A DNA stretch of 64,000 bases from Escherichia phage EP_H11. The notes under the pieces were generated by a model. It did no database searches and was not told the origin of the DNA. It saw only the letters and a program-made list of their open reading frames with translations. Within the stretch, counting starts at the first letter, position 1. Each line of letters starts with the position of its first letter. The stretch lies in the sequence record OP688485. The stretch is one strand, 5' to 3'. The position numbers were made by a program, and so were the translations under genes. Positions 2,209-36,590 of this stretch are shown here, piece after piece.

Positions 2209-2293
2209 TTATTTTATTTTTCAAATAATGAAAAATAAAACGATTTATGAAGCCTCCTAAAGCCCGTTCTTTTGGGTGGCGGGGCGTTCCCGC
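2209..2293 (+). promoter_or_regulatory. class B bipartite conserved element B1 (AT-rich box + AAAGCCCGTTCTTTTGGGTGGGGCG + GC hairpin)
   Basis: ttattttatttttcaaataatgaaaaataaaacgattt ... aaagcccgttcttttgggtggcggggcg, then a GC-rich stem; about 43 nt before the ATG at 2329. Confidence 0.45.
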
Positions 2294-2295
2294 TG

Positions 2296-2313
2296 CTTCT
2301 TCTTCTTCTTCTT
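2296..2313 (+). repeat. (CTT)6 trinucleotide microsatellite
   Basis: cttcttcttcttcttctt between class B element B1 and the small ORF at 2329. Confidence 0.8.
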
Positions 2314-2328
2314 CTCTAAGGATTGGAT

Positions 2329-2475
2329 ATGTTAACTTTAAGAGATTTCATTAGCGATTACCAGAGAATGGTAATTAACGGTGACTCCAAGAAGCCGGAT
2401 GTGGTAGAGTCTCTGATCACCACATACTATGCTCATATTGCAGACCAATGTAGATCATACCTGTCGTCTAAGTAA
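2329..2475 (+). CDS. hypothetical small protein (48 aa)
   Basis: ATG with AAGGA about 6 nt upstream, downstream of a class B motif; below the ORF-track size cutoff. Confidence 0.3.
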   Translation: MLTLRDFISDYQRMVINGDSKKPDVVESLITTYYAHIADQCRSYLSSK

Positions 2476-2481
2476 CGTAAT

Positions 2482-2513
2482 AGGCTGGGAGTTACCCAGC
2501 CTACTTTCTAATT
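2482..2513 (+). terminator. terminator-like hairpin
   Basis: aggctggg-agtta-cccagcct followed by a U-rich tract. Confidence 0.4.
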
Positions 2514-2525
2514 TGGGATTATTAT

Positions 2526-2765
2526 ATGTCTAGAATCTTCACTATCCCAGGAACCAAGATTTTGGTCCTGACCTCGAATCGCAATATCGCTAAGATTCAG
2601 TACCATCCTTCCAAAGATCAGTACTGCGTAATTCTCGAAGGTAAAAACGGAGTTACGGAGCACTGGACTAACTCATTATTCTCTGCCCTAATGCATACTG
2701 CCGACGTCGATAACTTCGACCCGATTATGGTAGACACCTTCCTGAAAATGGTAGGTGAAGCATGA
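2526..2765 (+). CDS. hypothetical protein
   Basis: ORF on the coding strand of the operon, ATG start; no recognisable motif. Confidence 0.5.
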   Translation: MSRIFTIPGTKILVLTSNRNIAKIQYHPSKDQYCVILEGKNGVTEHWTNSLFSALMHTADVDNFDPIMVDTFLKMVGEA

Positions 2766-3025
2766 TTAAGATGGTGGAAGTAACTCAATTCAATACTGTG
2801 GTGGTTAAGTCTGTAAACTTTCTATCCAGCATAGTGTATTACCCGAATCTTGGAATCTACGAAGTGGTCAAGCATCCTATGGGTGAGGCTAAGGTGGTAA
2901 TGTCAACCGAATCTGGTCGCTTCGCCAGAGAAATGGCTAAGGAGATAGACTCCTTCTTTAATTCTGCGATGGATGACTTCCTTGAGCTAACAGGCTGGTA
3001 TAGTCTTCCAGAACCGCTCCTTTGA
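2762..3025 (+). CDS. hypothetical protein
   Basis: ATGA start/stop overlap with the upstream ORF (translational coupling). Confidence 0.5.
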   Translation: MIKMVEVTQFNTVVVKSVNFLSSIVYYPNLGIYEVVKHPMGEAKVVMSTESGRFAREMAKEIDSFFNSAMDDFLELTGWYSLPEPLL

Positions 3026-3050
3026 GGCCTCCAAAGGCTGTTAAACTGTG
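3014..3050 (+). promoter_or_regulatory. class A conserved intergenic motif A1 (CCGCTCTTT-N-AAAGGCTGTTAA), candidate phage promoter
   Basis: ccgctcctttgaggcctccaaaggctgttaaactgtg; overlaps the upstream stop, ends about 30 nt before the ATG. Confidence 0.5.
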
Positions 3051-3079
3051 TGAGCTTATTTAACCTGACCGGAGAAATT

Positions 3080-34530: not shown

Positions 34531-34842
34531 ATGAAAAACATCGATATCGCTAAACTGTTCCTTATCTCTCGTTTGTATCGTCTGTCTAATTCTTCCTCTA
34601 TGATCCTGTGGTATATCTCCGGAACCGCTTCGGGAGCCACGATCAACGAGCTTACAGTCTTCGCTGATAGCGAAGCATCACTAGGTCAAATCCCTCGTAC
34701 GTCCATCTACTATGTGTGTAATAAGTTAGAGAAGGATGGCTGGTTGATCAAAACGACTACTGCTTCGGAAGAGGGTGGTCGTCCGTGCAATCTGTACTCT
34801 CTGAGCCATCGTGCTCGTTTCTTCCTCGACCTGAATAAGTAA
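34531..34842 (+). CDS. putative winged-helix DNA-binding regulator
   Basis: C-terminal block IYYVCNKLEKDGWLIKTTTASEEGGRPCNLYSLS resembles wHTH recognition helix plus wing; AGGAG RBS. Confidence 0.4.
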   Translation: MKNIDIAKLFLISRLYRLSNSSSMILWYISGTASGATINELTVFADSEASLGQIPRTSIYYVCNKLEKDGWLIKTTTASEEGGRPCNLYSLSHRARFFLDLNK

Positions 34843-34851
34843 GGTGCTGCT

Positions 34852-35232
34852 ATGTCCATATATTTCCAGGCAGTAGTTGGTGGTCACGTAGTCGATGAAG
34901 ATAACGTCAAGATCGTAACGACGAGTCTTGTTGGGTTACGGGATACTATTAACAAGGATGACCTCCTCCCGATTCACTACAACACTATTGTAGACCAATT
35001 AATTCAGGTAGAAACCGAAGATGGTCTATGCGGGAGCTTAGCGGAGCGAGTTGCTCAACCTATAGATTTGCTGGGTCTGTCCTTAAGGACCTCGGCTCTT
35101 CTGGATGAGCAACACGAGAATCTGACTGTGGATCAAATTAAGTTCCTGGTTAAATTGTTGAAGATGCTGTCCGCCTTAGCTGCAATCAGTCATACCTATA
35201 CGCTAATAACAACAAATCTAATGTGGAGCTAA
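34852..35232 (+). CDS. hypothetical protein
   Basis: ORF only. Confidence 0.5.
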   Translation: MSIYFQAVVGGHVVDEDNVKIVTTSLVGLRDTINKDDLLPIHYNTIVDQLIQVETEDGLCGSLAERVAQPIDLLGLSLRTSALLDEQHENLTVDQIKFLVKLLKMLSALAAISHTYTLITTNLMWS

Positions 35233-35234
35233 CC

Positions 35235-35531
35235 ATGCCTTCTGTAATCATTAAATCTAAGCATCGTGCTCTGTTGCGTGCTGCTCAGTCCAAGAATCTG
35301 GAAGAGATAACTAACATCGATCTCCATCCGAATACTCGCTACCACGACTACTTTATCTCCACTACGTTTATCGTACTGGATAAAGATAAGGCGAAGGTAA
35401 TAAAGAGCGTAGATAACCTCTTCGTCGAAGGTGAGATCATTCCTCTCCAGGATCTGTTCTCTAAGCTATCGGATGTCGAGCAGTCTACTCCTGCTACGAA
35501 GCATCCTGTAGACGTCCATATTTCCTTCTGA
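35235..35531 (+). CDS. hypothetical protein
   Basis: Trimmed to the ATG at 35235. Confidence 0.5.
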   Translation: MPSVIIKSKHRALLRAAQSKNLEEITNIDLHPNTRYHDYFISTTFIVLDKDKAKVIKSVDNLFVEGEIIPLQDLFSKLSDVEQSTPATKHPVDVHISF

Positions 35532-35538
35532 GGTAACT

Positions 35539-35745
35539 ATGGGATATAAGCTCTTTGAAACTAAGGAGCAGGAGGAGCACTTCCTGAAGATGATTCGGGA
35601 AGGCTCCGCCATGAATACTCCTCGCAGTCCTGACGATCCTGGGTATAGAAGCGGATGTAAGTCTATTACCCAGGAATTCAGTTCAACAGTCTACCGCTCT
35701 CAGCATCCTTATGTGAGCGGAGGTAACTTAGCTAAGGTCCGCTAA
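35539..35745 (+). CDS. hypothetical protein
   Basis: ORF only. Confidence 0.4.
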   Translation: MGYKLFETKEQEEHFLKMIREGSAMNTPRSPDDPGYRSGCKSITQEFSSTVYRSQHPYVSGGNLAKVR

Positions 35746-35906
35746 TGGAATGGGTGAGAGCATTGATGGTCATGAGTAGGCTAAAGCCTATCTGTCCAGA
35801 TGACATAATCCGGACTCGTGATGGATTAGTTATGTATCGTCAGGGTCACTTATCTGACCAGGATAAATCTGAAATCGGAATCTATAGGTTCGCTGATGGC
35901 TTTTAA
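35745..35906 (+). CDS. hypothetical small protein (53 aa)
   Basis: TAATG overlap with the upstream gene and AAGG upstream; below track cutoff. Either this or the 5' end of the next gene is real. Confidence 0.25.
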   Translation: MEWVRALMVMSRLKPICPDDIIRTRDGLVMYRQGHLSDQDKSEIGIYRFADGF

Positions 35907-36273
35907 ATTAATGGACAGAACTAAGATCCTACACACTGCTGTGGAGAATGGTGGTTATGAATGCCGTACAGATAATAATTCTGTGAACATGGCAAATATC
36001 TCTACCTGTCTGAAGCTGGTGAGCGAAGGATTACTATTTCACGGAACTACTGAACAGGATGCTTACGACAAGCAAGTTAAGTGGTTCCATCCGACTCTTA
36101 CTGGTATCTTAGTAGATACTCAGGAGAAACTGGCTTACCTCATTAATCGGGGTAAGCCTCTATCTAAGAGGAAGCCTGAGATCCTGAATGCTAAACGTAT
36201 TCTGGAGGATAAGCCTAACCTCGCATCTGTATTGAACGAAGATATCTTGAAATTAATTAGGGATTATAAATAA
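35896..36273 (+). CDS. hypothetical protein
   Basis: ORF; start uncertain (ATG at 35896 or 35911). Confidence 0.45.
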   Translation: MAFKLMDRTKILHTAVENGGYECRTDNNSVNMANISTCLKLVSEGLLFHGTTEQDAYDKQVKWFHPTLTGILVDTQEKLAYLINRGKPLSKRKPEILNAKRILEDKPNLASVLNEDILKLIRDYK

Positions 36274-36515
36274 TGGCTATTCTGGTATTTGCCAAAGATC
36301 AACGGCAGTATAACGATTACATTCGCTCCCAGCATCTTAACCGTTCTGATGCTGTCTACGCCAGCTGCGTTAATAAGCTGCGTGGTCTATTTCCTAAGCC
36401 TACTGAGATGCACTTGCTGCCTAACTGGCATCATAGCGGTCCGTCCCAGATGGCTATGGAAAAAGCTAAGACTCTCTTTCCACAAGCAGTAGAGAAGTCT
36501 ATCGATCAGTGGTAA
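36273..36515 (+). CDS. hypothetical protein
   Basis: ORF with TAAATG-type coupling to the upstream gene. Confidence 0.45.
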   Translation: MAILVFAKDQRQYNDYIRSQHLNRSDAVYASCVNKLRGLFPKPTEMHLLPNWHHSGPSQMAMEKAKTLFPQAVEKSIDQW

Positions 36516-36518
36516 AAT

Positions 36519-36590
36519 TATTTTTCAAATAAACGAATTATGAACGGGTTTAAAGCCCGTTCTTTTGGGTGGGGCGGCTTCCGGCGGCTC
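36519..36590 (+). promoter_or_regulatory. class B element B6
   Basis: tatttttcaaataaacgaattatgaacggg ... aaagcccgttcttttgggtggggcg; gaacggg/cccgttc can also pair. Confidence 0.45.

Follow-up and report, generated by a model that had tools for sequence, protein, structure and literature searches.

A promoter-like cassette with a leader hairpin recurs at the heads of ORFan and split RNA polymerase beta' gene clusters in Escherichia phage EP_H11

What is the function of the repeated intergenic element that lies ahead of the RNA polymerase genes of Escherichia phage EP_H11? The element, here called Class B, is one of two repeated motif classes (Classes A and B) in a stretch of 64,000 nucleotides of this phage (sequence record OP688485; hereafter the window). 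Our analyses established its anatomy, copy number, placement and conservation, as well as strand- and copy-specific pairing within the hairpin that it carries. We consider it moderately probable that this thymidine-hypermodifying phage uses Class B as an early promoter class of its own, with a hairpin transcribed as part of the 5' leader. Promoter activity, the start site, the polymerase that reads the element, its timing and the role of the hairpin are what we infer from the features set out below.

Each Class B cassette is about 90 bases long and runs from AT-rich half-sites through two boxes (boxes 1 and 2) and a G-rich hairpin to a Shine-Dalgarno (SD) sequence and ATG, the last two being reached 25-47 nt after the end of the hairpin. 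The half-sites, TTTTATTTTTC or GAAAAATAAAA, occur in either orientation and are often palindromic, with 12-bp arms in copy c1 and a perfect 24-nt palindrome in copy c4 (copies are listed in Table 1). Exact matches to TTATTTTTCAAATAA were found at 2214, 28805, 33020 and 36518, and GAAAAATAAAAC lies at 2230, 24986 and 33005, the reverse complement of the latter being at 33028; in the window, these strings are confined to the Class B sites, and the region from -72 to -37 is 72-86% AT. Box 1 is CGA(A/T)nTnTG(R)(R)A, with the consensus CGAAnTnTGRRA, and box 2 is AAAGCCCGTTCTTTTGGG. A mini-hairpin of GCCC and GGGT inside box 2 was considered and rejected, as the related contigs L012 and L013 carry GCGA there.

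A first-pass annotation, made from the letters of the window alone, had described six copies sharing an AT-rich box, with a stem-loop placed after the conserved sequence and 42-55 nt left before the start codon. The number of copies is as it had stated. The 25-mer AAAGCCCGTTCTTTTGGGTGGGGCG matches at five positions with ≤2 mismatches, all on the + strand (0 matches are expected from shuffles), a degenerate sixth copy reads ACAGCCCGTTCACTTGGGGCGGGGC, and a profile hidden Markov model (HMM) built from the six copies returned exactly six window sites (E values 1e-14 to 1e-9) and no further Class B site on either strand. Escherichia phage vB_EcoM_IME392 (MH719082, 116 kb; hereafter IME392), which is ~94% identical to the window, has the same six copies and no more, implying that six is the genome-wide number. 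The given distance agrees with ours, as 41-54 nt lie between the 25-mer and the ATG in the five strong copies (57 nt in the sixth). The common AT-rich box holds in part, in that the half-sites recur while a literal 26-mer matches only two copies at ≤3 mismatches, and the stem-loop had been misplaced, its 5' arm being formed by the GGTGGGGCG end of the 25-mer itself. All copies are intergenic, on one strand, co-oriented with the genes and situated where gene clusters begin. Searching the literature for the motifs brought up no relevant paper, and exact matching of GCCCGTTCTTKTGGGYGG against IMG/VR yielded three hits, all due to chance and in unrelated high-GC coding sequence.

Conservation of the element was examined in relatives retrieved by protein searches with beta'-C, the C-terminal half of the phage RNA polymerase beta' subunit, and by contig look-ups; a locus search of viral contigs with beta'-C gave none. 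The beta'-C identities of these relatives are 85, 59, 58, 50, 45, 44, and 35%. Contig L014 (85%) has orthologous Class B copies, including one of c6 (also present in IME392), and both of its ends break inside a copy. In contigs L012 and L013 (58-59%) the Class A core is unchanged, and each contig carries four cassettes of Class B type, of the form ACGAAGTTTGGGA-N-AAAGCGAGTTCTTTTG(G/T)G followed by a GC hairpin and SD/ATG, and the HMM derived from the window detects all eight of them (E values 1e-8 to 1e-4). The spacing from the CGA of box 1 to the AAAG of box 2 is invariably 15 nt, in the six window copies, these eight cassettes and L014. Among the more distant relatives, Acinetobacter phage Ab1-TPeters (50%) has a hairpin class (...AAAACCTGTTnnnTTGT plus GGGCGGG) around beta', with a hairpin copy upstream of a small ORF before topoisomerase in a position syntenic with c1; its second class, AAAAGCTGTTTAAAGTGT, has no hairpin and precedes topoisomerase and ligase. 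L017 (45%) carries AGTCTCGGAGGAC...AGCCCTTCCCTTTGGGG and then the hairpin GGGGGCGGC...GCCGCTTCCCC, and L015 (44%) carries GGGCGCTTA-N-AAAGCCAGTTAAAGTG and then a hairpin. Ralstonia phage RP13 (35%) has GGAAATGTTAGCAGT-N6-AGACTGTTATTTTGG followed by a hairpin, before ORFs adjoining both beta' halves, and a second class without a hairpin, AGACCTTGTnAGT. The part that recurs across relatives is (A)AAGnnnGTT-N2-TTTGG (or TGT/GTG), then a GC hairpin, adjoining the beta' genes; the upstream boxes are lineage-specific. The forms in L015, RP13 and Ab1-TPeters bridge the Class A-type core and the hairpin cassette, and the two-class design recurs in the relatives.

The comparator, Class A, is CCGCTCTTTT-N9-AAAGGCTGTTAAnnTGT and has 16 copies in the window, all on the + strand between 3008 and 55422. 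IME392 has 22 copies, all in the non-structural block. Class A sits 16-60 nt before start codons of genes that include those for topoisomerase, modification enzymes, a thymidylate-synthase-like enzyme, 5-hydroxymethyldeoxyuridine (5-hmdU) kinase, helicase, DNA polymerase and ligase. The first-pass annotation had taken the two motif classes to imply two transcription programs, for example host versus phage polymerase. We retain the two programs, since Class B is distinct and promoter-like, divides the genes with Class A and recurs in relatives. The proposed split between polymerases is not supported: Class B is without sigma-70 -10 and -35 elements and does not fit sigma-54, and both classes have the core AAAGnnnGTT-N4/5-TG in common, so that the two are more likely to be recognized by related systems than by host and phage polymerase respectively.

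A sigma-70 promoter was rejected because no + strand consensus site is in register, the best alignment by hand (TTGAAC-N17-TTTTGG) lacking A2 and T6. Sigma-70-like sites number 15 at 24.5-38.5 kb, where five of the six copies lie, against 23.5 in shuffles. Inspection for sigma-54 found TGAAG/TGAAC without GG in c1, c4, and c5, and c2 off register by 1 nt. For the start site, the most useful guide comes from the Class A cores at 45024 and 55406, where only 16 nt separate TGT from ATG, with the SD between; leaders this short require Class A transcripts to begin at TGT or only a few nt from it. When AAAGGCTGTTAAnnTGT is aligned with AAAGCCCGTTCTTTTGG, the likely Class B start falls on the G that opens the run following TTTT (positions in Table 1), and the L015 and RP13 forms agree with this register. 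With this +1, GCCCGT would lie at -12 to -7 and box 1 at about -33 to -22. Such a bipartite geometry is typical of factor-dependent multisubunit polymerases, in sequences that are not a sigma-70 or sigma-54 consensus.

Folding of the 40 nt from the predicted +1 of each element gave a hairpin that begins 0-3 nt from the predicted 5' end in every case, with stems of 7-10 bp and loops of 3-5 nt. The 3' arm is CGCTTCAC, and GGGGC/GCTTC, which includes two neighboring G.U pairs, forms the stem base in the E. coli phages, L013, L015, and L017. Among 26 elements folded in both directions, the minimum free energy (MFE) was lower for the sense than the antisense strand in 25 (means -13.5 vs -9.2 kcal/mol), while Class A leaders have a mean MFE of -6.1 kcal/mol. 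Wobble pairs (G.U or U.G) make up 41 of 188 stem pairs (22%), with the G mainly on the 5' arm, and stems this rich in G.U necessarily have C.A mismatches on the opposite strand. Hairpin sequences vary between copies, mainly in the apical stem, with pairing retained. Consistent with this, arms paired better with their own partners than in arm-swapped chimeras for all six window copies (-14.8 vs -10.8) and for 17 of 20 across lineages. Most stem substitutions between the window and IME392 interconvert G-C, G.U, and A-U pairs, with less clear changes at the c6 apical pair and a c4 indel, and the orthologous c2 and c6 hairpins of L014 have largely different sequence and have kept their pairing. 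When the 5' arm was held fixed and the next 28 nt were shuffled, the combined (Fisher) p values were 0.005 for the window, 0.02 for L013, and 0.04 for L015; support for the hairpin from this test is real but moderate, as G-rich sequence folds readily. These per-element folds, arm swaps and shuffles were used in place of a consensus-structure statistic because a MAFFT alignment of 22 elements lost the stem register owing to variable loops and stem lengths. Rfam gave no match in the whole window at gathering thresholds and none at E ≤ 1 for 24.9-36.8 kb.

A lenient terminator scan flagged the hairpins of c1 (2274-2298) and c2 (25031-25055) and a box-spanning hairpin of c5, and not c3, c4, or c6; the tails are CTTCTTC and GTTCATTATA, not U runs. 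The c5 hairpin arises because boxes 1 and 2 of this copy only are mutually complementary (GAACGGG TTTAAAG CCCGTTC, then TTTT; 36542-36562). It is an alternative, terminator-like structure of which other copies retain 3-6 bp. In the c1 leader, a (CTT)7 microsatellite (2296-2318) directly follows the hairpin; it is absent from IME392, whose c1 leader runs into different downstream sequence.

The placement of the cassettes is consistent with a promoter. Copies c1, c2, and c4 are directly 3' of intrinsic terminators (2177-2198, 24932-24949, and 32908-32944), which means that the genes behind these three would need a promoter of their own; c3, c5, and c6 have no terminator immediately upstream. Nearly all window genes are on the + strand, and they are partitioned between the classes, Class B going with ORFans and beta' and Class A with DNA metabolism, as early and middle classes usually divide genes. 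A temporal order of Class B early and Class A middle is suggested by this gene content and by RNA-seq of the distant relative YerA41, whose RNA polymerase (RNAP) subunits are early-expressed and virion-associated (PMC7354516). The genome paper of YerA41 reported only sigma-70-like promoters, which were BPROM predictions.

The two "RNA polymerase" genes are the halves of one clearly bacterial-like beta' (Table 1), with tblastn E values against E. coli RpoC of 4e-51 and 6e-28, although the IME392 ortholog of beta'-N carries the GenBank label "beta." The split is also present in IME392, L012, L013, L015, L017, and RP13. The 483-, 155-, 230-, and 251(218)-aa ORFans belong to four families that adjoin the beta' halves in all relatives examined, with 19-53% identity. 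None of them resembles RpoB, RpoC, a Pfam family or a PDB sequence. For the 483-aa ORFan, AlphaFold gave a mostly helical model of poor quality (pLDDT 58.8, pTM 0.36), and Foldseek of this model against the PDB gave no match at E < 0.4. All four are candidate polymerase accessory or specificity subunits. Modification genes in the window include those for the 5-hmdU DNA kinase, the thymidylate-synthase-like enzyme, dCTP deaminase and dUTPase homologs and further modification enzymes. IME392 is included among phages with a YerA41-type DNA polymerase, a group known for hypermodified thymidine (PMC12686479).

Table 1. Class B cassettes, Class A cores and associated features of the window. Start sites (+1) are predicted.
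Feature	Position	Strand	Details
Class B copy c1	2209..2297	+	Anchor 2262; AT palindrome TTTTATTTTTCA/TGAAAAATAAAA 2214-2241; box 1 2233-2252; box 2 (25-mer) 2259-2283; hairpin 2275-2297; +1 2274; ATG 2329 (48-aa ORF); unit of three small ORFs
Class B copy c2	24950..25055	+	Anchor 25018; GAAAAATAAAAC at 24986; box 1 24989-25008; box 2 (25-mer) 25015-25039; 10-bp hairpin 25031-25055 (GGTGGGGCGG/CCGCTTCACC); +1 25030; ATG 25081; unit of the 79-aa ORF
Class B copy c6 (degenerate, without AT box)	25321..25405	+	Anchor 25374; box 1 25345-25364 (GGCGAAGTCTGGGA); box 2 variant 25371-25395; 7-bp GC hairpin 25388-25405; +1 25386; ATG 25453; HMM E 1.3e-9; operon of 155-aa and 114-aa ORFans, beta'-C, 230-aa ORFan
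Class B copy c3	28798..28878	+	Anchor 28842; AAAAATAA/TTATTTTT inverted repeat; box 1 28813-28832; box 2 (25-mer) 28839-28863; hairpin 28855-28878; +1 28854; ATG 28905; operon of 251-aa ORFan, beta'-N, RNase H, Acb1-like protein
Class B copy c4	33004..33097	+	Anchor 33057; palindrome GAAAAATAAAACGTTTTATTTTTC 33005-33028; box 1 33028-33047; box 2 (25-mer) 33054-33078 (TTGTGGGC variant); hairpin 33069-33097; +1 33069; ATG 33126; unit of ~10 small ORFans, 33126-36515
Class B copy c5	36516..36596	+	Anchor 36555; TTATTTTTCAAATAA at 36518; box 1 36526-36545; box 2 (25-mer) 36552-36576; hairpin 36567-36596; +1 36567; ATG 36631; unit of small ORFs and Pol X (37272-38045)
Class A example	3008..3049	+	CCGCTCCTTTGAGGCCTCCAAAGGCTGTTAAACTGT
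Class A cores 1-8	3033, 6382, 7223, 9564, 11303, 13439, 15295, 18879	+	
Class A cores 9-16	22480, 32906, 38067, 45024, 50219, 51616, 54331, 55406	+	
beta' N-terminal half	29676-31244	+	Rpb1 domains 1-2; 31% identity to E. coli RpoC residues 20-514; c3 operon
beta' C-terminal half	26582-28096	+	Rpb1 domains 3-5; 27% identity to E. coli RpoC residues 570-990; c6 operon
Conserved ORFan, 483 aa	23475-24926		
Conserved ORFan, 155 aa	25453-25920		
Conserved ORFan, 230 aa	28105-28797		
Conserved ORFan, 251(218) aa	28905-29660		
5-hmdU DNA kinase	12422-13393		
UUCG-type hairpins	2177-2198, 6313-6355, 33420-33437, 41556-41598		
Breakpoint vs IME392	2296/2297		c1 hairpin end; 209-nt cassette (48-aa ORF and hairpin) in window only
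Breakpoint vs IME392	2991-3011		Just upstream of Class A box
Breakpoint vs IME392	22491/22492		Class A core end; 303-aa gene (22571-23482) in window only
Breakpoint vs IME392	28908-28916		c3, short-repeat deletion
Breakpoint vs IME392	32978-33002		Left edge of c4 AT box; 618 nt in IME392 only
Breakpoint vs IME392	41315-41608		

In the interpretation that we favor, box 1 and box 2 (AAAGCCCGTTCTTTT, -15 to -1) would together form a bipartite promoter, and the upstream AT-rich half-sites an UP-like or operator-like module. The reader would be a multisubunit RNA polymerase with phage-determined specificity, not the plain sigma-70 holoenzyme. As beta' itself sits behind Class B, an enzyme able to read Class B would have to exist before beta' is expressed; it could be a polymerase injected with the DNA, as the virion RNAP subunits of YerA41 (PMC7354516) suggest, or the host core with an injected factor. 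Class B mRNAs would begin, within 0-3 nt of their 5' end, with the G-rich hairpin, the tandem G.U pairs lying in its GGGGC/GCUUC base. This hairpin probably shields first-wave transcripts from 5'-end-dependent decay, or else serves as a handle for a regulator. In E. coli, a 5'-terminal stem-loop with few unpaired nt protects mRNAs from decay of this kind. The cassettes would thus drive the ORFan or host-takeover genes and both beta' halves, the products of which would then permit use of the Class A promoters.

The nearest familiar designs share some of these features. T7 class III promoters have a T/A-rich end and a G-run start, and the phi10 type has a stable 5' leader hairpin held to stabilize the mRNA. 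Class B would resemble them as a phage-specific promoter with a predicted G-run start and a 5' hairpin in the transcript; it differs in its bipartite, -35/-10-like geometry and in having only beta' halves, where T7 has a single-subunit RNAP and a single 23-bp box. Phages of the phiKZ and AR9 type have two full sets of diverged beta and beta' pieces, and a short AT-rich promoter consensus with no leader hairpin. Like those proposed for the window, their promoter classes are unrelated to sigma-70 and separate temporal gene sets, with RNAP genes in the early class. The window has a single split beta' (27-31% identity to E. coli RpoC) and no detectable beta.

Several observations weigh against the promoter interpretation, or against parts of it. 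Promoter activity and the +1 are deduced from sequence, the +1 leaning on the alignment with Class A, and the Class A upstream box, CCGCTCTTTTAGGG, resembles CCCGTTCTTTTGGG of Class B box 2, which offers an alternative register. The shared core is not universal, as box 2 of L017 has CTT for GTT. The excess of folding energy is modest (mean z ~-1.3), with non-significant shuffle results for L012 (p 0.23) and Ab1-TPeters (p 0.31), and part of the structure signal may be due to composition since G-rich sequence folds readily. Stabilization, as the simplest role of the hairpin, draws on what holds for E. coli mRNAs in general, and the conserved stem base leaves room for contact with a specific protein or with the polymerase. 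As to the enzyme, no beta subunit was found by tblastn with E. coli RpoB, by Pfam on ~40 ORFs or by PDB sequence searches, hhalign of the four conserved ORFan groups against RpoB and RpoC found no beta either, and no sigma-like gene was present among 10 structural-block ORFs of IME392. A beta may be concealed among the ORFans through extreme divergence; the alternative is that the phage beta' pairs with the host beta. Taken furthest, these points would suit an undescribed transcription system, in which a clade of thymidine-hypermodifying phages with a split bacterial-like beta' and no beta forms a hybrid with host beta and alpha, or redirects the host core by an injected factor, and the hairpin with its tandem G.U base is more than a stabilizer, being a cis-acting RNA or non-template-strand DNA signal recognized by the enzyme or by a partner from the four conserved ORFan families, marking and controlling the first-wave transcripts. 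We regard this possibility as quite improbable.

The closest published parallel to the cassette is the promoter-early stem-loop (PeSL) of T4-type phages (Arbiol et al., 2010, PMC2839356; Comeau et al., 2014, PMC4122927), in which ~100 bp contain, in order, an AT-rich stretch, promoter boxes, a stem-loop of polyG/polyC with G-T pairs, and SD plus ATG (PMC2839356). The PeSL stem-loop is an effective terminator, and recombination between PeSL cassettes forms mini-circles and shuffles ORFans. Class B is likewise a repeated intergenic cassette of ~100 bp in an early, ORFan-associated region, with the same order of parts, including the AT-rich upstream sequence, a G-run/C-run stem-loop with G-T pairs and SD plus ATG. 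The cassettes may also mark sites at which close relatives differ by insertion, deletion or replacement: four of about six indel breakpoints between the window and IME392 (Table 1) touch edges of Class A or B elements, a count from one genome pair and with no background model, and both ends of contig L014 lie inside Class B copies. In addition, a 637-nt gene sequence is present in IME392 only, before a Class A box. Such a pattern is reminiscent of the modular shuffling associated with PeSLs, and one could propose that the stem-loop of a Class B promoter is a read-through terminator or insulator and a homology patch for shuffling ORFan cassettes. We consider this unlikely as the explanation of the hairpin. 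No U-tract directly follows the stems, which would make them poor intrinsic terminators for E. coli RNAP, insulation would be redundant for c1, c2, and c4 behind their canonical terminators, and the c3 breakpoint is a short-repeat deletion unrelated to the cassette. Unlike the strong sigma-70-like early promoter of PeSL, the Class B boxes are not sigma-70-like, and unlike PeSL stem-loops, which vary in position, that of Class B is fixed relative to box 2, overlaps it and is probably transcribed as the mRNA 5' end. The carrier also differs, being an unrelated 5-hmdU-hypermodifying myovirus with a split beta'. The PeSL-like proposal is largely compatible with an early promoter cassette, differing from it in the purpose of the hairpin, and shuffling is likely to be an additional evolutionary role rather than a replacement of promoter function.

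Other explanations assign the hairpin a different part in transcription. N4 early promoters are an established precedent for hairpin-dependent early promoters read by an injected polymerase: a giant single-subunit virion RNA polymerase (vRNAP) recognizes a template-strand hairpin upstream of +1 (~-12), with a 5-7 bp stem and a 3-nt loop. Class B would similarly be a small promoter set with a conserved inverted repeat, and the N4 set is used before phage gene expression. If box 2 and an extruded hairpin were recognized in this manner, transcription would start near CTTCAC and give a hairpin-less leader of 20-35 nt; the 25-47 nt from the hairpin end to the ATG would suffice for a leader containing an SD, and the hairpin base is conserved and its top variable, with the conserved CGCTTCAC at its 3' edge. 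It is quite unlikely, however, that Class B works in this way, because its pairing is specific to the sense strand, its stems and loops (7-10 bp and 3-5 nt) are longer than those of N4, no ORF of giant virion RNAP size exists in the window or the IME392 annotation, and in L015 initiation is expected at the near-perfect Class A-type core plus GTG that precedes the hairpin. A cis-acting regulatory RNA, whether a put- or nut-like polymerase modifier or an operator through which a phage protein silences or processes early mRNAs, would fit a stem base conserved across lineages beyond the needs of stability and a hairpin confined to the transcript class to which the beta' genes belong. In two Class B units, the first ORF is followed by a hairpin that lacks a strong U-tract (2481-2503 and 33420-33437) and could be a signal for read-through. 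The put RNAs of HK022, which act in cis on beta' to bring about antitermination, are likewise structured RNAs encoded just downstream of early promoters, and are made of two stem-loops in ~70 nt, to which the one short Class B hairpin is far simpler. We found no evidence for put-type antitermination at Class B, no candidate RNA-binding factor and no Rfam match, and conservation of the 5' arm is equally explained by constraints on initially transcribed sequence, making a regulatory RNA of this type very unlikely. Finally, the element might not be a phage promoter at all. Repeated intergenic hairpins are reminiscent of T7 early mRNA with its RNase III sites, and c3, c5, and c6, with no terminator immediately upstream, would be present in read-through transcripts, as expected of an RNase III/E-type processing or stability site in polycistronic early transcripts. 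Stems of 7-10 bp are nonetheless too short for canonical RNase III substrates, the boxes with fixed spacing and the AT half-sites would be left unexplained, and the three copies behind strong terminators would still need their own promoter. A sigma-70 promoter masked by base modification fares no better, as no sigma-70-like hexamers align across copies and such sites are fewer than in shuffles at 24.5-38.5 kb. We judge either of these non-phage-promoter explanations to be highly improbable.

A phage-specific promoter joined to a leader stem-loop is known in kind, but this design in this clade has not yet been described. If the early promoter cassette is what we propose, it would be the first promoter grammar for a little-studied clade comprising IME392, Acinetobacter phages Ab1-TPeters and 3098, Ralstonia phage RP13 and several metagenomic lineages. 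This clade is distantly linked to YerA41, and its members hypermodify thymidine and have the unusual split beta' gene. Operons and temporal classes could then be annotated from sequence alone, and box 1, box 2, and the hairpin would be defined DNA and RNA probes for the polymerase and its specificity factor, which would help to test whether the phage beta' works with host beta. It would also extend the PeSL idea, in which cassettes of promoter and stem-loop are recombination linkers for ORFans, beyond T4-type phages and sigma-70.

Several minor observations concern terminators and the other genes of this region. The Class A core at 32906 (AAAGGCTGTTAAC) pairs with its own inverted copy (GGTTAACAGCCT), followed by ATTTTTATTT, to give a 17-bp terminator-like hairpin (32906-32946) between the c3 operon and c4 that is conserved in IME392; the core sequence appears to be reused here as a terminator stem. 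A GGG..CTTCGG..CCC design with a UUCG tetraloop (GGGGTCTTCGGACCCC, GGAGGACTTCGGTCCTCC) recurs in several terminator or 3' hairpins (Table 1), some of which have no U-tract and follow the leading ORF of a Class B unit. The structural block of IME392 has no Class A or Class B motif, and no late-gene motif could be extracted from it given its sparse annotation. Upstream of one structural-block gene is a sigma-70-like TTGACA-N17-TAAATT (IME392 68411-68559; L005 18511-18659), and late genes may have yet another promoter type.

The beta'-N operon behind c3 also contains an RNase H-like gene (31244-31765) and a 2H-phosphoesterase/Acb1-like gene (32054-32560; Pfam Acb1 E 2.9e-6; PHROG "RNA ligase"), and it is possible that the latter has an anti-CBASS function expressed in the first wave. 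In the Class A-driven block there is a full-length transporter of the betaine/carnitine/choline (BCCT) family (8174-9556; Pfam E 1.6e-91), around which lie base-modification genes, namely the 5-hmdU DNA kinase, a PIG-L deacetylase (9643-10254), and a methyltransferase (6420-7160). This transporter may import a substrate for thymidine hypermodification.

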